32,000 nt of DNA from assembly GCF_000711955.1 (NCBI RefSeq), contig NZ_JONR01000006.1, positions 62,096 through 94,095 on the forward strand, given 5' to 3'. Below, in pieces: positions 4,389-19,838 of the stretch. Below the pieces are notes generated by a model that was not told the origin of the DNA, ran no database searches, and was given only the letters and a program-made list of their open reading frames with translations. Made by a program: the position numbers and the translations under genes. The stretch comes from Nevskia soli DSM 19509. GTDB taxonomy: Bacteria > Pseudomonadota > Gammaproteobacteria > Nevskiales > Nevskiaceae. How positions within the stretch are numbered: the stretch's first letter is position 1; the number at the start of each line of letters is the position of its first letter.

Positions 4389-7250
<2,862 letters not shown>

Positions 7251-7564
7251 GGGGCAGTAGAGTTTTCGGCCACGCGAGGCGCGGCGGGGAATGGGGCAAT
7301 CGGGTACTATACTTCCCTTAATTGCTGCAGTGCACCCTGTTTTCAATGCCTGCAGTGATGCGCGACAACGGCGTCTGCGCCAACCGGCCCGGAATCTGCA
7401 TCGGTTCCCGGCCAAAATGGCCCAAAACTTATCGTTTCCGCCTGACCGATGAGCCCCAAACAAGCTAAAAGCATTTTCGGACCAGCCACCGTCCCTGCCC
7501 CGCACGCGCCCGGCAGCTTCGCGGCGCTGCTGCGGATCGTCTTCAACCCGGACAGCATCGCCTC

Positions 7565-8755
7565 ATGAACGCTCTGGAATGGCGCTCCACCATCGCCCTG
7601 GGCTCGGTCTACGCCCTGCGCATGGTCGGCATGTTCATGATCCTGCCGGTCTTCGCGCTTTACGCGAGCACCCTGCCGGGCGGCGTGACGCCGCTGGAGG
7701 AAGGCTTCACCCTGGGCCTGTACGGGCTGGTGCAGGCCTTCCTGCAGATTCCCTTCGGCATCGCCTCCGACCGCTGGGGGCGCAAGCCGGTGATCGTCAT
7801 CGGCATGCTGCTGTTCGCCCTGGGCAGCTTCATCGCCGGCAGCACCCACCAGATCGGCTGGATCATGCTCGGCCGCGCGGTGCAGGGCGCCGGCGCGGTC
7901 TCCGCCGCCGTCTCCGCCCTGGTGGCCGACACTACCCGCGCCGAAGTGCGCACCACCGCCATGGCGATTCTCGGCGCCGGCATGGGCGTGTCCTTCATCC
8001 TGGCGATGGTGCTGGGGCCGGTGTTCGAGGGCTGGATCGGCGTCAACGGCATCTTCCACATGACCGGCGTGCTGGCGCTGCTGTCGATTCCGCTGGTGCT
8101 GTTCGTGGTGCCGAACGCGCCGCCGGCCGAAAAGCGCGTCGCCAACATGGAAGCCGCGATTGCCGACACGCAACTGCTGCGGCTGGACGGCGGCGTCTTC
8201 CTGCTGCACCTACTGATGGCCGGACTGTTCCAGGCGGCGCCTTACGCCATCGTGCGGACCCTGGGCCTGCCGGTGGCGAAACACTGGCAGGTGTACCTGC
8301 CGGTGCTGATCTTCTCCATCATCCCGGTGTTCCCGCTGATCCGCTGGGCGGAAAAGCGCGGCAAGACCAAGCCGGTATTCATGGGCGCGGTGGCGACGCT
8401 GGGCGTGGCGCTGCTGCTGGCCGCGGCGGGCTACACCATCGCCATCGGCCTGTGGGCGGCGATGCTGGTGTTCTTCGTCGCCTTCAACTACCTGGAAGGC
8501 TCCCTGCCCTCGATGATCTCGCGCCGCGCGCCGGCTTCGCAGAAAGGCGCGGCGCTGGGCGTGTTCTCCACCGCGCAGGTGCTGGGCGGCGCCATCGGCG
8601 CGCCGCTGGGCGGCTACCTGTACGAGCACGGCGGCCTGACCCTGGCTTTCGCCGGGCCGGCGCTGCTGACGGCGCTGTGGCTGAGCTTCGCCGCCGGGCA
8701 GACGCCGGTGGATGCCACCCACGCCGGGCCGGAGCCGGCACGGCCTGGTGCATAA
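7565..8755 (+). CDS. MFS transporter
   Basis: 396 aa with an ATG start, highly hydrophobic and multi-span. The MFS loop 2-3 motif is DRWGRKPVIVIG. It is divergent from uvrA. Confidence 0.85.
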   Translation: MNALEWRSTIALGSVYALRMVGMFMILPVFALYASTLPGGVTPLEEGFTLGLYGLVQAFLQIPFGIASDRWGRKPVIVIGMLLFALGSFIAGSTHQIGWIMLGRAVQGAGAVSAAVSALVADTTRAEVRTTAMAILGAGMGVSFILAMVLGPVFEGWIGVNGIFHMTGVLALLSIPLVLFVVPNAPPAEKRVANMEAAIADTQLLRLDGGVFLLHLLMAGLFQAAPYAIVRTLGLPVAKHWQVYLPVLIFSIIPVFPLIRWAEKRGKTKPVFMGAVATLGVALLLAAAGYTIAIGLWAAMLVFFVAFNYLEGSLPSMISRRAPASQKGAALGVFSTAQVLGGAIGAPLGGYLYEHGGLTLAFAGPALLTALWLSFAAGQTPVDATHAGPEPARPGA

Positions 8756-10387: not shown

Positions 10388-10568
10388 ATCAATGCAATTC
10401 GCTGACGCTCGATCACGGGTTGTTTCAATCCGGGCGGCTAGGCAGGTGCTACTCCTTCTAGGCTGGGTCTTTCAAGCGTATTAGACCCGAGGGCCGCACC
10501 CCCGGCTATGATGTGGGTCAATACAGGTAGAAGCCGCAGATCGTTCCGTCATGCAGGCAGCGCGGGCG

Positions 10569-12059
10569 TCAGGCGGCGCCGCGAATCTCGTGCACGCCAG
10601 CCCCTCCCGGCGGCGGCAGCGGCAGCCAGAGGCTGAATGCGGCGCCGCCCGGCTGATTTCGCTCGGCCCAGATACGGCCGCCATGCGCTTCGACGATGCG
10701 ACGGCAGATCGACAATCCCTGGCCCAGGCCATCTTTCTTGGTGGTGAAGAACGGCGCGAACAACTGATCCGGCGGATTGCCGCCGAAACCCGGACCGTTG
10801 TCCCGCACGGTCACGCTCACGCCCACGGGCGCATCCGAGACGGCGCCTTCGATCTGCAATTCCGGGGCTGAAACCCGCGCTTCGACCATGGCCTGGACGG
10901 CATTGCGGACGAGATTGACCAGCACCTGCTCGATCTGGACGCGGTCCAGCAGCAACTGCGGCAGCGCGTCAGGCACCTTCGTCAATACGCGCACACTGTT
11001 GACTTTCAATTCATGCTGGAGCAGCTCCAGCACCTCGTGCACGCTGGCGCCGAGGTCGCTCGGCTGCTGCTCGATCTCGCCTTTCTCGACGTATTTGCGC
11101 AGGCGGCGGATCACTTCGGCGGCGCGTTCGCCCTGGCGCGCGATCTGCTGCATCGAATCGCGCAACAGCGCCATATCGGCGGTGCCGGCATCGATCATGC
11201 GCGAACAGGCGCCGGAGAAGCCGAGAATGGCGGTCAGCGGCTGGTTGATCTCATGCGCCAGGCCCGCCGCCAGATCGCCCATGGAATGCACTCGGGCCAT
11301 ATGCGCCAGTTCGTCCTGGCGGCGGCGCGCTTCCTGCTCGATCTGCTTGCGGTCGGTGATGTCGCGGATGATGCCGGTGAATACGCGCTGCCCCGACACC
11401 ACCACTTCGCCCACGGAGAGGTCCAGCGGGAATACGGTGCCGTCCTTGCGCAAACCCTCCACCTCCCGACCGAGGCCGATGATCTTCTTGCGCCGGGTGG
11501 TCAGGTAGTTGTGGAGATAACCGTCATGCTCGGCGCGGTAGGGCTGGGGCATCAGCATGGAGACGTTGCGCCCCAGCACTTCCACTGCGCGGTAGCCGAA
11601 AATGCGCTCGGCAGCGCGATTGAAAGACTGAACCCGCCCGGCGCCATCGATGGTGAGAATGCCGTCGACCGCGGTATCCAGAATCGCCTGATGCCGATCG
11701 AGCGCCTCGGACAACTCGGCCTGCATGCGATCGGCGACCCGCATGTCGGCGCCGGTCACCACCACGCCCTGGGTCTGGCCATCGGCATCGCGCAGGCCGG
11801 AGTACCCCCAGTGCACGGCGAACCGCTTGCCGTCCCTTGCCTGCCAGCTGCCGTGCTGATCCGGCACATCCTCGCCGGCCGCGGCGCGCAAGAAGCCCTC
11901 GCGCATGGTCTCGGCGTGTTCCGGCGCCGCCAGCCGCTGCCACACCGGCTGACCCCGGCACTCGGCCAAGGCCAAACCCGTCGCTGCTTCGCAATGGTGA
12001 TTCAGCTGACGAATATCGCCATTGGGAGCGCCGATGGCGACGAGTATTCTTCCGGGCAT
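10569..12059 (-). CDS. PAS-domain sensor histidine kinase (FixL/NtrB-like HisKA + HATPase_c)
   Basis: The ORF is open to 12242. I place the start at the ATG at 12059 (MPGRILV..., SD GAGGAA upstream). It has two PAS-like segments (e.g. GILTIDGAGRVQSFNRAAERIFGY), the H-box LAAGLAHEINQPLTAI, the N-box LVNLVRNAVQA and the G-boxes DNGPGF / GLGQGLSI. Confidence 0.9.
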   Translation of the reverse strand: MPGRILVAIGAPNGDIRQLNHHCEAATGLALAECRGQPVWQRLAAPEHAETMREGFLRAAAGEDVPDQHGSWQARDGKRFAVHWGYSGLRDADGQTQGVVVTGADMRVADRMQAELSEALDRHQAILDTAVDGILTIDGAGRVQSFNRAAERIFGYRAVEVLGRNVSMLMPQPYRAEHDGYLHNYLTTRRKKIIGLGREVEGLRKDGTVFPLDLSVGEVVVSGQRVFTGIIRDITDRKQIEQEARRRQDELAHMARVHSMGDLAAGLAHEINQPLTAILGFSGACSRMIDAGTADMALLRDSMQQIARQGERAAEVIRRLRKYVEKGEIEQQPSDLGASVHEVLELLQHELKVNSVRVLTKVPDALPQLLLDRVQIEQVLVNLVRNAVQAMVEARVSAPELQIEGAVSDAPVGVSVTVRDNGPGFGGNPPDQLFAPFFTTKKDGLGQGLSICRRIVEAHGGRIWAERNQPGGAAFSLWLPLPPPGGAGVHEIRGAA

Positions 12060-14228: not shown

Positions 14229-14538
14229 TGGGGACTCCGTACACCGTGCGGGATGATCAGCTTAGGTGAATCGCGGCTGGCCGGGTATGAGGTCCGGAAC
14301 CAACTACTTCAGGCAAACTGGAGATCTGGGATCGTCAAGCAATACTAAAAAGCTCGAGAATCCGCGTCGAAAGCTCTTGAACACCCACTAGTGGCAGGCC
14401 GAGCACGGCCAAGGACATAACGCCACCGAGAACCAAGTCAAAGCATACAGATTCTCGACACCCCTAGCGGTGTTGCTTCCGAAAAAGCTCTAGTCGACAA
14501 GCCAAAGCAGGTGCATATGAAATTAGTCCGGCTCACGT

Positions 14539-15195
14539 TCAAAACAGGCTTCGAGTCCGCGGGGCGATTTCGTAGAGCTCTATCATTTGGCGAAGAAACT
14601 GCGCTTGCCCGCCGTAACTGGGATGTCGCACGCATACCACGGGTACGGAGTCAGTAATGCGCTTCGCCGCGTTTGCAGCATCATTGCCGATCGCGAGGAT
14701 TCGGCGCGGCCGAAGCAATCCAACGAGCATCGCCAGAATCGCTTCACCCGCCGCTCGCTCCAGCGAGTTGTGCTGGCGATTGGTGAAAGGTTCACCGACT
14801 TCATGTGGGTGCAGCGGAAACACATTCCATAGAAACACCCGCGCGTCTACTTGGTCGAGAATGCTCCAAATGACGGCTGCTGTACGCTCAGCAACAACCA
14901 CCCCCAGGGTCGGTCGTTCTACTTCCAAATTCCAACGTTTGGCGTGGCGTCCCATGTGCACATCGTCCGTCAGGGCCATTCCGGTACGGCGGCCACCACG
15001 ATACCCAAGATCGCGCCCAACCCAAATAGCATCAATAGGAACCTCGGCAGCGCGTCGCACCATAGCCGACAGCACCTTGGCACGACGGATCGGCGCGTCA
15101 ATTCGGTCGTGTATAGGGCACCTGTCCGTGTAGGGATTGAAAGCATTGGAAAAGCGCAGGCCAGATACATCCACGACAAAAGGATGGAGCTTCAC
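14539..15195 (-). CDS. Uracil-DNA-glycosylase-superfamily protein (divergent UDG fold, unknown specificity)
   Basis: 218 aa. The GTG start forms GTGA with the stop of the upstream gene. UDG-like motif A position is WVGRDLGYRGGRRTGMALTD (other families have GxxPG...TG.PF). The mid motif is LWNVFPLHPH and motif B is VCVRHPSYGG. Confidence 0.7.
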   Translation of the reverse strand: MKLHPFVVDVSGLRFSNAFNPYTDRCPIHDRIDAPIRRAKVLSAMVRRAAEVPIDAIWVGRDLGYRGGRRTGMALTDDVHMGRHAKRWNLEVERPTLGVVVAERTAAVIWSILDQVDARVFLWNVFPLHPHEVGEPFTNRQHNSLERAAGEAILAMLVGLLRPRRILAIGNDAANAAKRITDSVPVVCVRHPSYGGQAQFLRQMIELYEIAPRTRSLF

Positions 15196-16349
15196 AACTT
15201 GGCCTCCAGCGGCCGGTACTCAATAGTGCGTCGTACTCGGCTGCCGACCACCCAACCGCCCTCGCCGTCCCGAATCTGACGAAAGACGCGGTAGCCATCG
15301 AGGATGGCGCGCTCCCACAGTCGAAGCGGGCACTTCTCGACCTCGTAGCCGTCTACGAATTCACGAACGGTTTTTAGTATACCCAGCGAAACACGGGTCT
15401 GCCCCTCAAAATAGTCTAATTCTTTTGCACGAGAGAAAAGCCAAGCAGTGAGTCCTTCTTCAACAACTATCGCACGCCCACTATCTTCCTCCTCATCGAG
15501 CCTGGGCTGACTCTTGCGCTTGTGTTTAATAAGCGCCCGCATAACGGGAGACCAATGCAAGATTGCGGCATACGCAAAATGAAATACATCATGAAAACGG
15601 TATCCGTCCCGATCCCCGATGTTGTCAGTCAATGGATCGCCAACAAATACTCCACGCCATCGGAGATAGCTTTTCCCGCTTGGCCGCTGATTAATGCGAA
15701 TCTTAAAAAACCGCGGTAGCTGCTCTTCCGACCCAAGCCCCGCGTCGAAGTCCACTAGACTTGCTGGAGCAGGATCAAGAAACGCTCCTCGTACCTTGCT
15801 CACATTTGTGTGGGCCACCTCGGCGAACGACAGACCTGACACATGTAGAGCATTCAGATAATAAAAGGCGAAAGCTTCGACAGCCTTCACTTCTGGGCGG
15901 TCACCGAGCAGAGCTGCAGCACCCCTACCTAGATCAAATAGCGCAGAATCAAGGGAAATGTCTTTTCGCGGTACAGCAATTTGGGCAATCGCACCCGACA
16001 GATCACTTGCCGCAATGAGATGTTGATAACCACCTTGCTCGGCCGCTCGGACAAATAGATCGTCAAGGCGCAGATCCATACGCCTTGACAGCGCAGCGAG
16101 GTACCAAAGCGTATCTCCAAACTCCTCGACCGCCGACAATTTGGCACGAGGATAAGCGTTTCCTTCCCGAACGTGCTTCTTGGCGGTTGACATAATGCCC
16201 CCCACTTCGCCAAAGAGCCCCTGCAGGATTGGCTTGAAGTCTGCAGGATCAATGATGTCCGTCGGCGCGACAGCGCCTGCATATTCAGAGAGCAAAAGGG
16301 ATTTAGAGATGTCTGGGATTAGACTTTGCACGGAGGGATATCCATTCAA
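15192..16349 (-). CDS. MazG-like nucleoside-triphosphate pyrophosphohydrolase domain (N-terminal ~110 aa) fused to a ~270-aa C-terminal domain of unknown function
   Basis: LQGLFGEVGGIMSTAKKHVREG...AVEEFGDTLWYLAALSRRMDLRLDDL fits the all-alpha MazG/YpjD-type pattern (GExGE..KK..R ... EE.GD.LWYL..LA..lgidl). There is no in-frame ATG before the MazG helices. Candidate starts are TTG 16349, GTG 16331 and TTG 16295, so the 5' end is uncertain. The C-terminal part contains YRFHDVFHFAY. Confidence 0.65.
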   Translation of the reverse strand: MNGYPSVQSLIPDISKSLLLSEYAGAVAPTDIIDPADFKPILQGLFGEVGGIMSTAKKHVREGNAYPRAKLSAVEEFGDTLWYLAALSRRMDLRLDDLFVRAAEQGGYQHLIAASDLSGAIAQIAVPRKDISLDSALFDLGRGAAALLGDRPEVKAVEAFAFYYLNALHVSGLSFAEVAHTNVSKVRGAFLDPAPASLVDFDAGLGSEEQLPRFFKIRINQRPSGKSYLRWRGVFVGDPLTDNIGDRDGYRFHDVFHFAYAAILHWSPVMRALIKHKRKSQPRLDEEEDSGRAIVVEEGLTAWLFSRAKELDYFEGQTRVSLGILKTVREFVDGYEVEKCPLRLWERAILDGYRVFRQIRDGEGGWVVGSRVRRTIEYRPLEAKL

Positions 16350-16950
16350 ACGGTGAACCCTGAAATCCGCGGATCCTTAACGATCTAATCCATTCTATGA
16401 ACCGATCACGGCTTCGGGCGTCATCGATGCATGAATAACCTATTCCAGAATGAATGATAGTTCGCCCGTCGGGCCGAGTTAGTGTGTCGGGAATTAGCGG
16501 CCCTTCACCGCCAAAATAAACAAAGTCATCGCCAATCAGAACTCGATTCACTCCAGTATCAATCCGCACGTGCTCAGCGTGTATAGAGCCGTCATTATTT
16601 GTGTGAAAAGAGTCTCGTTGCCCCCAATCATTTTCCGCAGCATCCCAGTAGTAAATGTTGTCCCCACAACTCTGCTTTCGGCTACCGCGACGGTATGGCT
16701 TTTTATCCTCAAAATTCGGGTTCGCGTCATACTCTTGGAAACTTAAAATACTCGCGACTCGCATCGCGTAAACCAAATACCCAGCCCTTCGAACTGTTCG
16801 GTCGCCACTGCCAGTCCCCACAATCCAATCACCTATCTCCGCCCCCTTACGGATCGGCGGCTTACATGTGGCGAGCGTGCAGAATCCGTAGAAGGGATTT
16901 GGAGCAAACCCACTGTCGTACCGAACAACGTAGGAGTAGAGTCGCGACAT
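16303..16950 (-). CDS. Nmad2-like protein (nucleotide-modification-associated domain 2; assigned from memory of the family N-terminal signature)
   Basis: I place the start at the ATG at 16950 (MSRLYSYVVRYDSGFAPNPFYGFCTLATCKPPIRKGAEIGDWIVGTGS). It overlaps the TGA of the upstream TIR gene by 1 nt (TGATG). As I recall, the YSYVV.YD.GFAPNPF.G.CTLA.CKP.IR signature is characteristic of proteins annotated as Nmad2. No HMM search was run. Confidence 0.5.
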   Translation of the reverse strand: MSRLYSYVVRYDSGFAPNPFYGFCTLATCKPPIRKGAEIGDWIVGTGSGDRTVRRAGYLVYAMRVASILSFQEYDANPNFEDKKPYRRGSRKQSCGDNIYYWDAAENDWGQRDSFHTNNDGSIHAEHVRIDTGVNRVLIGDDFVYFGGEGPLIPDTLTRPDGRTIIHSGIGYSCIDDARSRDRFIEWIRSLRIRGFQGSPFEWISLRAKSNPRHL

Positions 16951-17417
16951 CAGCAAGGATGACGCCGAAGGGGTACTGGATCGAAAAGTGATCCATCGGC
17001 GTGTTCCCAACGGTCTTTGCCGTCGATAGCATTTACGATGGCGTTTCCATTCCAGCTAACTATGGAATCGGCATGATCCTTCAGAGCGTCGGGCAACTCA
17101 CAACCCTGATTCCCGTACGACCAAATCCCAATAATGTGCTTGCCTTGCTTGGCAGCATATTCAACTTCCCAATTCACCCACTCACTATCCCGCGTCTGAG
17201 GTGATATTACGCATATGAACGTCCCTGCCCAATCGATAAGAGGACTCAATATCCCGTACTTGATGTAGTCAGGGTCCTTCGCTTCGTTGAACTTTCCTTT
17301 ATGGATCGAGGAGTCACGGATAGTCACTCCTTTAGTCGCCAGCAGGTCTTTAAGTTTCCCCAAGCTGGTATCATCTTCATGAATGTGACTGATAAAGACA
17401 TTTCTGATGTCTGCCAT
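16950..17417 (-). CDS. TIR-like domain protein (DUF1863/ThsB-type)
   Basis: The ORF is open to 17741, but the ATG at 17417 is preceded by a strong SD (GGGGAGGGA). It gives a 155-aa protein, MADIRNVFISHIHEDD...ICVISPQTRDSEWVNWEVEYAAKQGKHIIGIW. This shows the hallmark FISH..eD start and S.WV.WE motif of bacterial TIR-like domains. Confidence 0.8.
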   Translation of the reverse strand: MADIRNVFISHIHEDDTSLGKLKDLLATKGVTIRDSSIHKGKFNEAKDPDYIKYGILSPLIDWAGTFICVISPQTRDSEWVNWEVEYAAKQGKHIIGIWSYGNQGCELPDALKDHADSIVSWNGNAIVNAIDGKDRWEHADGSLFDPVPLRRHPC

Positions 17418-17512
17418 TTCATTCCCTCCCCGACTAAAGATCTCAGAAAAACGAACAACTTCGCGGACTGAGTGTTTGGGCTTTGCTTTCAGACCCGATG
17501 TACTGGCGCAGA

Positions 17513-18061
17513 TCAACCCGTAAGCCAATCTCGCAGAGGCGTCCCAGTATTGCGCTTTGTATCTAACACCATCCATAAAGAGCCCTGGCGGCCCCGTATT
17601 TCTCCCCATACAATTTTTCGATAGAGTCCTAAATACTCCCAAGACGCCCAATCTTCGGATTGACTGTCGACGGCAGGAAATAGCGCGATGCCTCGCGTGC
17701 CCTTGTATCCATCTGCAATCCCAAGCTCCCACGGAACCCAACGACTTTCCTTACTATTGGCACTCGCCAGCAGCACAAAACGTTTCGAATGCTGAATACG
17801 ACTTTTCAATAGCTCCGCCGTCTCTTCTGTCGTGTAGGGCGGCATAGATGGATCAACTTCATCGATGTAAACATTCGCTCCATGATTTCTCAGAACCTTT
17901 ATAGCTCCGACGACTAAATCGTCATCTTTACTGGAGTGCGAAAGGAAAGTTGATGTCGTAGTACTATCTAAAGTTAATGACTTTCGAATTTGCGCCTGCT
18001 CGATAATGGTCGACTGGGCCGCAATATTGCGCAATTCAGATTTTGTTACGTATTGAACCAC
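17513..18061 (-). CDS. thsB: TIR-domain protein, Thoeris ThsB
   Basis: 182 aa. The GTG start lies 11 nt after the thsA stop. It has TFLSHSSKDDDLV...RFVLLASANSKESRWVPWELGIADG (TIR beta-A FLSH..kD and S.WV.WELG motifs). It is immediately downstream of a SIR2-SLOG gene. Confidence 0.8.
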   Translation of the reverse strand: MVQYVTKSELRNIAAQSTIIEQAQIRKSLTLDSTTTSTFLSHSSKDDDLVVGAIKVLRNHGANVYIDEVDPSMPPYTTEETAELLKSRIQHSKRFVLLASANSKESRWVPWELGIADGYKGTRGIALFPAVDSQSEDWASWEYLGLYRKIVWGEIRGRQGSLWMVLDTKRNTGTPLRDWLTG

Positions 18062-18072
18062 TGTCTTGATCT

Positions 18073-19518
18073 CTATTGAGCGGCCTTGTCGATCCGCTTC
18101 AAGATCGCCATGGCCACTGACACCAATGAATCAACATCTGCATCCGGATTGGAAAGCGCGCGCAATTCGTCGTCAGTGGGTCTAGCGGCATTATTTCCAT
18201 GCGCCGGTAGTGTCGACCCAAAGAGATCTTCAGTTATCTTTTGGGCTGCACCTCCACTTGCCCCTATTGGCAAAAGGAATGCGCCAGATGCTTGCGCTAT
18301 TCGAGCCTCTTCTATAACCCCGTCTGCAATCACGATCGATGGATTGATCTCCTTAGCTCCTCCTACAAAAACCACAACGCCAGAAATTCTTGCAAGCTCT
18401 TGCCGCAGATCTGCCCATTGACGATCATGATTCGCGTGCTCAAGAAGCGCCTGGGGAAATGGCCGAACAATCAATCTTCGATCAATATCCCAACCGCCGC
18501 CTCCACGTAAAGAGTCGAGAAATCCGGCAAGCGCTGCTGAACCGACAACCAGTCCACCGCCACTCACTAGAGATTTTCCAGATTCGCCTATAGCACGGCC
18601 AATTTCCTCCGCGACTTTGTACGCCTTTGCCATTCCCCTACTTGGCTCGATAGGCCAACTACCGCTCACCCAGACGCGTTTTCTGGCAACACGTCGCTCA
18701 ATTTGATGGAGAAGACCCTGAACCTCTGAATATTCATCGATATCAACGGCAATGAGGCCGTAACGCCTCAGATCCTTGGCCCACAACGAATGCTGAGCGG
18801 CCCGTGCCTTGTATTCGGTATCCGATCTGAAATCATCCTTGTGTGGCGGCCTGACGATTGCAAAGTGTTCAGGGGGTGCCTCAGTAAAGCTCTCTCGTAT
18901 TAGTGAAAGTACGTGCCTAATATTTGGGTCGGTGAGGCTGAGGCCAACAAACAGCATTGACATGCTGGTCAGCTGAGCTTGAAGTAATGGCAGATATGCA
19001 CCACGTTTTGATCTATACAGTTCATAGTCGTCTGTAGAGATAACAACATCATCGAGGCGATCGACGGAGCCGTGCATTTTGTATAGACGCGTTGCCCCTG
19101 GGGTGGCTTTGAGGGAAAGATCCTTCGGCGATGACAGCAAATCTAACGGCCGGCCAATAGCTTCAAATGCACGCTCGATAAGGCGGTCATAGTTCGTTGT
19201 CCAGATGTGACGAACAGGCAGTCGAGCTATCACGGCCAACGAATCAGGTACTGGATAAAGCGGTCCAAGTTTTTCGCGGATGACGCTTCGCACCCGTGTC
19301 GCGCTCCCCGTTTCTTGGATACTCCATTGGGCCAACGCCGCTAAATCATGGATATCGCTTGAACTTACACCCAGTTCCTCCCCAATTTCATGTAGTAGAT
19401 TTGACCAAGATGGATATCCGGCCCCCATCGAGACGCCAGCTCCAACGAATAAGGCTGCGTTTCCGCTTTCGAGGGCCTCAGGGAAGTCCTTTAGAAACCT
19501 AGTCCTAGCCATGTTCAT
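18073..19518 (-). CDS. thsA: Thoeris ThsA: N-terminal SIR2-like NADase domain + C-terminal SLOG sensor domain
   Basis: 481 aa. SIR2_2-type motifs are ALFVGAGVSMGAGYPSW, IWTTNYDRLIE (Asn ~109) and LYKMHGSVD (His ~149). These are near the catalytic N112/H152 positions I recall for Bacillus ThsA. The C-terminal half has SLOG/LOG-like glycine motifs (VWVSGSW, LVSGGGLVVGSAALAGF, VVFVGGA, LLPIGASGGAA). Confidence 0.9.
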   Translation of the reverse strand: MNMARTRFLKDFPEALESGNAALFVGAGVSMGAGYPSWSNLLHEIGEELGVSSSDIHDLAALAQWSIQETGSATRVRSVIREKLGPLYPVPDSLAVIARLPVRHIWTTNYDRLIERAFEAIGRPLDLLSSPKDLSLKATPGATRLYKMHGSVDRLDDVVISTDDYELYRSKRGAYLPLLQAQLTSMSMLFVGLSLTDPNIRHVLSLIRESFTEAPPEHFAIVRPPHKDDFRSDTEYKARAAQHSLWAKDLRRYGLIAVDIDEYSEVQGLLHQIERRVARKRVWVSGSWPIEPSRGMAKAYKVAEEIGRAIGESGKSLVSGGGLVVGSAALAGFLDSLRGGGGWDIDRRLIVRPFPQALLEHANHDRQWADLRQELARISGVVVFVGGAKEINPSIVIADGVIEEARIAQASGAFLLPIGASGGAAQKITEDLFGSTLPAHGNNAARPTDDELRALSNPDADVDSLVSVAMAILKRIDKAAQ

Positions 19519-19838
19519 CCCGTTGTCCTTTTGACTTTAGTTTGGGCGCACAGGTACATCTATGATGCGACCTGAACTTGCCTTAAAACATCATCGGCTA
19601 AAGCCCGACTCGGGAGGCCAACCTAAATTACTCTGCGATACGCCTTTTAGTCACCCACGGAAGGCTAACCAACTGCTAACTTCTTTAAATGTTCAGCCAA
19701 TCAACCACTTGGAGATGTGCAAAACATCTAAGGCTTAGTCCAACTCTCGAAAAGGGCGGGAATGCGATCACTGAGCTTGCGATTTAGCTGAAGAGACTGG
19801 GCGCGTATATCCCGCGAAACAGGATCGCCAGAAAACGC

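Follow-up and report, generated by a model that had tools for sequence, protein, structure and literature searches.

We analyzed a window of 32,000 nucleotides from Nevskia soli DSM 19509 (contig NZ_JONR01000006.1, positions 62,096 to 94,095 of the forward strand), in which four adjoining genes, called the cassette below, encode a ThsB-type TIR protein (gene 1), an Nmad2 protein (gene 2), a MazG-like protein with a MazG_C domain (gene 3) and a divergent protein of the uracil-DNA glycosylase (UDG) superfamily (gene 4). The composition profile of the window showed a G+C content of 0.48-0.59 at about 14.4-19.7 kb, compared with 0.64-0.72 in the flanks. The genes of this island are transcribed in the order thsA, thsB, gene 1, gene 2, gene 3 and gene 4 (Table 1). 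The island is flanked by an AI-2E transporter gene and a LysR gene, and the flanks also encode a PAS histidine kinase. The two genes upstream of the cassette supply the parts of a type I Thoeris system, namely a ThsA with SIR2 and SLOG/STALD domains and at least one TIR protein ThsB, and both were recognized by PADLOC; the low-G+C island beside a Thoeris pair, as described in the original prediction, was thus confirmed. The thsA of the window is probably the SLOG-type partner of the cassette. The window showed no tRNA gene, the island no integrase gene and its flanks no convincing direct repeats. The Nmad2 and MazG proteins encoded here have 100% identity to public Nevskia soli records. The Nevskia island consists of Thoeris and the cassette only and, unlike the integrase-linked copies found elsewhere, has no integrase at its border.

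The gene junctions were then read on the sequence. Gene 1 has its own Shine-Dalgarno-like sequence, GGGGAGGGA, and the gap between the stop of thsB (17513) and the start of gene 1 is 95 bp; the consensus scan showed no terminator-like site in this gap. The stop codon of gene 1 (TGA, 16952-16950) and the ATG of gene 2 (16950-16948) have one base in common in the sequence TGATG, and the GTG start of gene 4 overlaps the stop of gene 3 in the sequence GTGA (15195-15192). The Shine-Dalgarno-like sequence, the 95-bp gap and both of these overlaps had been predicted and were found as described. However, the overlap of genes 2 and 3, predicted to be up to 47 nt, reached 47 nt only with the TTG start of gene 3 at 16349, whereas the annotated GTG start at 16331 (protein P0121, 379 aa) gives 29 nt, and the overlap could be shorter or zero, because most homologues align from residue 17 on. 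A terminator-like hairpin 30 nt past the stop of gene 4 is probably the end of the transcription unit. The sigma-70 scan returned fewer sites than in shuffled sequence, and no promoter was called.

Table 1. Positions of the low-G+C island, its genes and the associated signals in the window.
Feature	Position	Strand	Product or basis
Low-G+C island	14400..19750	.	Six minus-strand genes only (thsA, thsB, genes 1-4); composition profile
thsA, adjacent type I Thoeris	18073..19518	-	PADLOC PDLC00407, E 9e-154; Pfam SIR2_2 and STALD (SLOG)
thsB (TIR), adjacent type I Thoeris	17513..18061	-	PADLOC PDLC00436, E 1e-81; Pfam TIR_2 and ThsB_TIR
Shine-Dalgarno-like sequence GGGGAGGGA	17423..17431	-	Seven bases before the ATG of gene 1; read from the sequence
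Gene 1	16950..17417	-	ThsB-type TIR, 155 aa; ATG at 17417-17415
Gene 2	16303..16950	-	Nmad2, 215 aa; Pfam PF18753
Gene 3	15192..16331	-	MazG-like and MazG_C, 379-aa form; alternative TTG start at 16349
Gene 4	14539..15195	-	Divergent UDG-superfamily protein, 218 aa; GTG start
Terminator-like hairpin followed by a T-run	14487..14508	-	Consensus scan

Conservation of the four-gene operon

Nmad2 was searched against one genome per species, which showed a close relative in at least 585 genomes, and the best 80 loci were kept. The TIR, Nmad2, MazG/MazG_C and UDG genes were present in the same order and on one strand in these 80 loci, which came from different genera of Gamma-, Beta- and Alphaproteobacteria and, in a few cases, from cyanobacterial or Bacteroidota assemblies; the exceptions were cut contigs and one locus without UDG. 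Across the loci, the pairwise identities of MazG correlated with those of UDG (rho 0.95), which indicates that the genes co-evolve. In a library of 1.84 billion cluster representatives, 2,432 relatives of Nmad2, counted as clusters at 50% identity, were found. The longer Nmad2 relatives included three fusions of TIR with Nmad2, in two orders (P0260, P0323 and P0292), and further fusions of Nmad2 with MazG and MazG_C (P0275) and of Nmad2 with NOV_C, which we take to be a nuclease-type domain. The overlapping frames and these fusions tie TIR, Nmad2 and MazG closely to one another. The four genes are one conserved, horizontally mobile operon, beyond a chance arrangement, and the original expectation that they would co-occur as a unit was borne out.

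None of the models of PADLOC-DB v2 or NCBIfam matched genes 2-4. The product of gene 1, however, was matched over its full length by the PADLOC ThsB model PDLC00418 (E 1e-75), so that PADLOC leaves genes 2-4 unassigned but would call gene 1 a ThsB. On the strength of this match gene 1 could be regarded as a second thsB of the Thoeris locus and genes 2-4 as a separate three-gene unit, and Thoeris loci often have several thsB genes. We consider this scarcely credible. The TIR gene is directly upstream of Nmad2 in 80/80 loci, most of which are without ThsA, the stop of the TIR gene overlaps the start of Nmad2, and the TIR-Nmad2 pair also occurs in four plasmid variants and in DS-4 (working name NTTI), a validated and replicated defense system of E. 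coli (PMC13092281). Because of this synteny and the TIR-Nmad2 fusions, gene 1 belongs to the cassette in spite of the PADLOC call, and the proposal that it is merely a second thsB was rejected.

Several copies showed signs of decay or rearrangement. About 1 kb is inserted between MazG and UDG in L057 (11753-12837), the MazG and Nmad2 matches are split in L074 (about 11438-11516) and L076 (about 10426-10462), suggesting frameshifts, and the UDG match is absent from L073. In four alphaproteobacterial loci without a SLOG neighbor, a gene of about 228 aa lies directly upstream of the TIR gene on the same strand (L073, 8778-9467; L077, 8816-9496; L078, 5658-6344; L080, 8782-9468). This gene had no Pfam or PADLOC match and may be a fifth gene of that alphaproteobacterial variant.

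Domains and conserved residues of the four proteins

The product of gene 1 matched PF08937 ThsB_TIR (E 1.8e-18, 67.2 bits against a cut-off of 21.2) and was 39% identical to the TIR of DS-4 (E 2e-34). The closest solved structures in the PDB sequence search were 8wcf, 8fz9 and ThsB1/ThsB (9b7d/6lhy). Glu84 (WVNWE) was invariant in 22 aligned TIRs, and a catalytic role is assigned to it by position only. The last residue of the protein is a cysteine (Cys155, codon 16955-16953). Each of the 22 aligned TIRs of the TIR-Nmad2 class, among them those of DS-4 and of distant plasmid variants, has this cysteine at its C-terminal end, two of them as the penultimate residue. Fusion P0323 (ThsB_TIR-Nmad2), the sole fusion inspected, has lost the terminal cysteine of the TIR together with Cys29 and Cys95 of Nmad2, and this joint loss could point to a metal or disulfide contact shared by these cysteines, or to a site of modification.

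The product of gene 2 matched PF18753 Nmad2 (E 3.9e-69, 232.6 bits) over residues 1-204 of 215 and was 49% identical to the Nmad2 of DS-4 (E 2e-45). Conserved residues of Nmad2 include D12, C24, C29 and K30. The name Nmad ('nucleotide modification associated') derives from DNA-modification contexts. The PDB sequence-profile search with Nmad2 gave no meaningful match. The AlphaFold2 model of the protein had a predicted local distance difference test (pLDDT) score of 84, and the Foldseek search with it gave nothing significant (E >= 0.14); the weak matches were mostly PUA-like and included ASCH, YTH and EVE domains, the McrB N-terminal domain and a restriction enzyme that reads 5-hydroxymethylcytosine (5hmC). 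These matches suggest, as a lead and not as a result, that Nmad2 may be a PUA-like binder of bases or nucleic acids.

The product of gene 3 matched PF18722 MazG_C (E 8e-78, 260.8 bits). In the 379-aa form, the MazG-like domain spans about residues 14-184 and MazG_C about residues 192-375. The MazG-like domain is a putative all-alpha NTP pyrophosphohydrolase, a family with a four-helix fold and an acidic metal-binding motif (E..E...E..D). PF03819 MazG did not match the protein of the window at E <= 0.1; the same model matched the relatives L094 and P0275. In the alignment of gene 3 homologues, the acidic residues of GEVGG and EEEFGD were invariant, and so were the EEFGD motif and Glu residues upstream of it. 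A weak PDB profile match to DCTPP1 was obtained with the N-terminal half (E 0.014), and Foldseek matched this half only, to DCTPP1, the integron MazG (iMazG) and dimeric dUTPases, at probabilities of 0.85-0.93, although a query with the whole protein gave E about 1; MazG_C had no fold match. The literature labels MazG_C a 'predicted kinase' (PMC13092281), and its comparison with the 5-hydroxymethyldeoxyuridine (5-hmdU) DNA kinase domain showed no detectable homology (hhalign probability 0.6%).

The product of gene 4 matched PF03167 UDG marginally (E 1.7e-5, 25.4 bits against a gathering cut-off of 24.3). The profile of its alignment gave PDB matches to the family-4 UDGs 4zbx and 1vk2 (E 0.07-0.1). 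Three blocks, GRDLGYRGGRRTG, FLWNVFP.HPH and RHPSYGGQ, were invariant in 28 homologues, and GRDLGY, D62, N124 and H191 lie within these invariant blocks; by position, we take them to be the Asp/Asn/His elements (motifs A and B and the base-contacting Asn) of UDGs. Three of the four Pfam families anticipated in the original prediction were found, namely PF08937, PF18753 and, marginally, PF03167, but PF03819 was missing for the protein of the window. The fold assignments are supported, weakly so for the UDG and for the N-terminal half of the MazG protein. The predicted catalytic residues of the cassette enzymes are conserved, and judged by these motifs the enzymes look active.

Mobility and distribution of the cassette

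One MazG protein sequence, P0213, appeared in over 1,000 index blocks of the assembly collection, and in public records it is found in Pseudomonas aeruginosa and Achromobacter xylosoxidans. The P0213 cassette is carried by an integrative and conjugative element (ICE) that is inserted at many chromosomal sites; it occupies the end with the integrase, after a RelE/HTH gene pair and before genes for DUF932, ParB, DUF736 and DUF2958 (ten loci shown of 24 contigs). Searches of 50,697 phage genomes with the Nmad2 and MazG proteins (tblastn) gave no matches, and a relative of Nmad2 was present in 1 of 2.9 million viral contigs. The data support the cassette as cellular cargo of ICEs and islands and agree with the expectation that its homologues would not sit mainly in prophage DNA-modification operons. 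A phage origin, or a role as a phage DNA-modification operon, was rejected on the near-absence of the Nmad2 and MazG proteins from the phage and viral sets.

The distribution also bears on a housekeeping or self-directed role, in which the cassette would sanitize nucleotide pools, repair DNA or modify host DNA epigenetically, with no immune role. Classically, enzymes of the MazG and UDG families serve in house-cleaning and repair, and the origin of the Nmad name in DNA-modification contexts would fit such a role as well. It is nevertheless very improbable in view of the patchy, horizontally transferred distribution on ICEs and in a low-G+C island, the strict link of the other genes to an immune-type TIR, the TIR and SLOG immune neighbors described below, and the defense phenotype of the relative DS-4.

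Related systems

The last two genes of DS-4 are a ThsB-type TIR gene and an Nmad2 gene in overlapping frames, and this TIR also ends in cysteine. However, DS-4 has a thymidylate-synthase homologue, a deoxynucleoside monophosphate (dNMP) kinase and a 5-hmdU-DNA-kinase-like protein instead of MazG/MazG_C and UDG, and of its five-gene set the cassette has the TIR and Nmad2 in common only. Among the 80 loci there was no match to the thymidylate synthase or the dNMP kinase of DS-4, and its 5-hmdU-kinase-like protein had one weak match (L073, 26% identity). In one entry of the plaque table, DS-4 lowered the plating of phage lambda about 10-fold and gave small plaques (PMC13092281).

Other partners accompany the TIR-Nmad2 pair on plasmids. 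On a Sinorhizobium plasmid these are a thymidylate synthase, an O-methyltransferase and a 5-hmdU-kinase-like protein, with three TIR genes and a divergently transcribed gene for an 874-aa patatin upstream. A Parabacteroides plasmid has a 5-hmdU-kinase-like protein and a radical SAM protein, and a Gloeothece plasmid has a CBASS-type phospholipase, a 5-hmdU-kinase-like protein and MazG/MazG_C. The common thread of these sister systems is a pyrimidine C5 or thymidine-type nucleotide chemistry combined with an immune-type TIR. Phage toolkits for thymidine hypermodification, said to be described by Iyer et al. in 2013 and Lee et al. in 2018, reportedly include a thymidylate-synthase homologue, a 5-hmdU DNA kinase and MazG-type enzymes. 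The enzyme families of these toolkits recur around the TIR-Nmad2 pair in the sister systems, but the cassette, which is linked to an immune-type TIR, was not found in phage genomes. The best reading of these comparisons is that the cassette is the MazG/MazG_C and UDG variant of a wider TIR-Nmad2 class, of which DS-4 is the tested member.

The original prediction had called the cassette undescribed, and this did not stand. DefensePredictor has predicted a system of MazG, MazG-C, NMAD and UDG to be defensive (PMC13092281; DeWeirdt, Mahoney & Laub, Science 2026, Fig. 6F/S12B). It is one of eight examples whose domains are unvalidated, it is sometimes located in defense islands, and the same paper states that several of these domains were predicted to be defensive in Burroughs et al. 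2015. The earliest descriptions of the domains are probably those of Burroughs et al. 2015 and Iyer et al. 2013. The domain set listed in the figure legends of the DefensePredictor paper matches that of the cassette. Neither a mechanism nor the specific link to TIR and SLOG genes is given in that paper. No mechanistic study on Nmad2, or on MazG with SLOG and TIR, was found in the literature. The cassette is thus unnamed but not unnoticed. The interpretation as a defense system gained from the measured anti-phage phenotype of DS-4, with which the cassette shares TIR-Nmad2, but it was no longer new, a system with the same domain set having already been predicted in print.

Association with TIR and SLOG genes

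Flanking open reading frames within 6 kb of the cassette were clustered for 30 representative loci, which stand for 29 lineages at 85% MazG identity. A SLOG protein together with TIR genes was found in 23/30 loci, and the SLOG neighbors fell into three families, STALD/ThsA, LD_cluster3 (SLOG3) and LD_cluster2, the latter two with TIR. The five most recurrent neighbor families were all SLOG or TIR proteins: SLOG3 (16/30 loci), a 395-aa TIR (15/30), a small ThsB_TIR (13/30), a ThsB of the type in the window (10/30) and ThsA (5/30). The mobile-element families DUF932 and integrase were present in 4/30 loci each, and a large patatin protein, a pair of TIR and SLOG cluster-2 proteins, and a 228-aa protein with no assigned family in 3/30 loci each. 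No recurrent defense family other than TIR/SLOG was found among the 30 loci.

A SLOG3 homologue was present in 53/80 loci, usually adjacent to its TIR partner and no more than about 5 kb away from the cassette. In most loci the SLOG3 copies had only 31-53% identity to the reference copy, and they occurred in at least three gene arrangements. Next to the ICE copy of the cassette, the opposite strand encodes a SLOG cluster-3 protein, the 395-aa TIR protein and two small ThsB_TIR proteins; PADLOC ThsB models matched all three TIRs of this cluster, and PADLOC had no model for the SLOG3 protein. A cluster of SLOG3, the 395-aa TIR and one or two small ThsB_TIR genes adjoins the cassette in L081 (12053-14987, Tn4371-like conjugative element) and in about 50 other loci. 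The identities of the cassette and of its SLOG3/TIR neighbors correlated weakly (rho 0.23-0.34), and the two recombine yet stay adjacent. SLOG3 was found on 29 plasmids, 4 of which also had Nmad2, adjacent each time, while 25/29 were without the cassette; conversely, SLOG3 was alongside in 3/4 plasmids with a close cassette-type Nmad2. The association of the cassette with TIR and SLOG genes is specific, recurrent and one-sided, and it is new relative to the published prediction. The original prediction had treated the Thoeris pair as mere neighborhood, and this specific and one-sided association changes the likely mechanism.

ThsA homologues 66-67% identical to that of the window adjoin the cassette in L055, L058, L060, L065 and L066. 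ThsA is the next gene after the cassette in L065 (9534-15464) and L066 (9534-13943), and in L065 an integrase gene lies beyond it. No TIR besides that of the cassette, and no remnant of ThsB, was found in these two loci, which leaves the cassette TIR as the sole candidate for generating the signal to ThsA.

The cassette shares with type I Thoeris a ThsB-family TIR with a catalytic-type Glu, and it adjoins either a thsA-thsB pair or, as in L065 and L066, ThsA alone. The canonical form of type I Thoeris, however, needs ThsA and ThsB only, and Nmad2, MazG/MazG_C and UDG were not found as parts of the described Thoeris types in the text of two Thoeris papers. The survey of Yirmiya et al. (preprint, December 2025; 10.64898/2025.12.03.692087) describes Thoeris operons with Cap2/3 or Cap9-11 ancillary genes, and its text makes no mention of Nmad2, MazG or glycosylases. 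Its introduction gives the name 'type III Thoeris' to operons with several TIR genes and SLOG. These operons resemble the commonest neighbor of the cassette (LD_cluster3 SLOG, 395-aa TIR and one or two small ThsB_TIR), a resemblance that concerns the neighbor of the cassette and not the cassette itself.

A separate explanation is that the cassette defends autonomously, by depleting nucleotides or excising DNA bases, and that its adjacency to Thoeris reflects shared islands or synergy. In this version TIR-Nmad2 would sense infection or the TIR would deplete NAD+, MazG would hydrolyze canonical or phage-modified deoxynucleoside triphosphates, and the UDG-like enzyme would remove uracil-type or modified bases. 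DS-4 works when cloned alone, and 7/30 representative loci have no SLOG neighbor, which speaks for autonomy. The conserved catalytic motifs of the four cassette proteins, the identity of DCTPP1, the nearest solved relative of the MazG part, as a dCTP pyrophosphatase, and the precedent of Brig1 for defense by a glycosylase alone (PMC11078745) are in line with it too. However, clustering in islands leaves unexplained why TIR and SLOG genes only recur, across three SLOG families and in several arrangements, and the one-sided dependence is left unexplained as well; in addition, L065 and L066 have ThsA with the cassette TIR as the sole TIR. Autonomous defense is possible but, on this balance, doubtful.

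Other neighbors were seen in single loci or small groups. In L030 (6261-8257), L079 (7316-9491) and L069 (13232-15243), a SLOG cluster-2 (LD_cluster2) gene comes after a gene for a TIR protein of about 400 aa, and PADLOC had no model for either protein of L079. A patatin-like phospholipase of 860-887 aa is encoded near TIR-Nmad2 in L069 (4977-8758, minus strand), L007 (6623-9286), L063 (6795-9377) and L091 (210-2834); in L069 the patatin gene shares a separate operon with genes for a second TIR and a short Nmad2 (152 aa). In L029, from Undibacterium terreum, a homologue of Lamassu LmuB (PADLOC E 2e-138) lies upstream of the cassette at 6539-8368, and it was the only non-TIR defense gene among the few neighbor proteins scanned against PADLOC.

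Comparison with Cap proteins and a possible ancillary role

Cap9 and Cap10, which belong to the QueC and TGT families, conjugate a nucleobase to the CBASS cyclase (10.1101/2025.04.06.647259). The cassette resembles Cap9, Cap10 and Cap11 of type IV CBASS in that families of nucleotide or base modification, including a protein of a DNA-glycosylase family, stand beside a signaling enzyme and depend on it; no sequence relationship between these proteins and those of the cassette was found. By analogy with Cap2/Cap3 and Cap9/Cap10/Cap11, which accompany CBASS and some Thoeris operons, the products of genes 2-4 could form an ancillary module that chemically primes, modifies or switches off the TIR or its signal and does not act on phage nucleic acids. 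The one-sided association with TIR and SLOG genes fits such a module, and so do the invariant terminal cysteine of the TIR (22 aligned TIRs, DS-4 included), the loss of this cysteine in fusion P0323 together with two otherwise conserved cysteines of Nmad2, and the precedents of nucleobase conjugation by Cap9/Cap10 (10.1101/2025.04.06.647259) and of Cap-bearing Thoeris operons (10.64898/2025.12.03.692087). Yet there is no homology with Cap proteins, the TIR moves together with the cassette and not with the SLOG system (rho 0.95 against 0.23-0.34), systems of the DS-4 type defend without a SLOG system, and the cysteine could be a mere TIR-Nmad2 contact or metal ligand. We regard an ancillary role of this kind as unlikely.

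Proposed function

The cassette is very probably an anti-phage module. We infer its defense role because the TIR-Nmad2 pair has its homologues in the two final genes of the validated DS-4, because the commonest version is ICE cargo beside the integrase and near TIR genes, with a Lamassu neighbor in L029, and because the cassette is nearly absent from phages and DefensePredictor predicts the same domain set to be defensive. More specifically, our tentative preference is for a horizontally mobile anti-phage operon that works with the neighboring Thoeris-type signaling and processes nucleotides or bases. A coupling to Thoeris-type signaling is suggested by the SLOG and TIR neighbors in 23/30 loci, the recombination with retained adjacency, the one-sidedness of the association and the arrangement of L065 and L066. 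The pyrimidine theme of the sister systems, in which thymidylate synthase and 5-hmdU DNA kinase domains recur, also counts for the preferred reading.

In the preferred reading, the conserved core would be a ThsB-type TIR enzyme paired with Nmad2. Nmad2, which probably binds bases or nucleic acids through a PUA-like fold, would be the partner or sensor that controls the small TIR, which has no sensor domain. Once triggered, the TIR would convert NAD+ to a Thoeris-type signal readable by the adjacent SLOG effector, which is ThsA in the window. Deoxynucleotides and DNA bases, the likeliest being uracil-family pyrimidines (uracil or thymine), would be the targets of the MazG-type pyrophosphohydrolase and the UDG-like glycosylase, whose action would damage or starve phage DNA replication. 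We infer the TIR as the signal generator for ThsA, Nmad2 as the sensor, and the substrates of MazG and UDG from the homologies and gene neighborhoods given above. As originally suggested, the cassette might also sense or destroy phage-modified nucleotides; the DNA of lambda, a phage affected by DS-4, has ordinary bases.

Several points weigh against this proposal. The defense role of the MazG/UDG variant is a prediction, and DS-4, which is without MazG and UDG, had a modest effect in the plaque-table entry for lambda. DS-4 was cloned into E. coli MG1655 alone, so that a cloned SLOG partner is not a strict requirement of a TIR-Nmad2 system. Thoeris has its own thsB in the window and can therefore do without the cassette TIR. 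In the seven representative loci without a SLOG neighbor, the genes found instead encode patatin, a TIR-TM protein, Lamassu or proteins of no assigned family. The thymidylate synthase, methyltransferase and radical SAM proteins of the sister systems point towards the synthesis of modified nucleotides and not towards simple destruction. With regard to the proteins, the UDG fold of gene 4 is supported marginally, MazG_C gave no fold match, and the putative PUA-like nature of Nmad2 rests on Foldseek matches that were not significant (E >= 0.14).

The cassette could also be a nucleotide-chemistry front end for Thoeris-type immunity, in either of two versions, although we consider this rather improbable. 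In the first version, MazG and the UDG-like enzyme could act on material that is phage-specific or derived from replication and set free a base or nucleotide, which Nmad2 could bind; the TIR could then be activated by this product or could join it to ADP-ribose, which would give a new signal for SLOG. In the second version, the three enzymes could prime the TIR covalently at its invariant C-terminal cysteine, by analogy with deazaguanylation in type IV CBASS.

With relatives of Nmad2 in at least 585 species-representative genomes, the cassette is common, and three of its four genes are outside the models used for defense annotation. If the cassette is protective, the immune repertoire of bacteria would gain a MazG-type pyrophosphohydrolase, a new UDG-fold enzyme and the uncharacterized Nmad2 and MazG_C domains. 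The one-sided link to TIR and SLOG genes suggests that an accessory module for nucleotide processing can be attached to Thoeris-type signaling, much as Cap proteins are to CBASS. The cassette would open a testable route to how small TIRs without a sensor domain are switched on, and it might show whether thymidine- or uracil-type nucleotide chemistry serves bacteria as a weapon.

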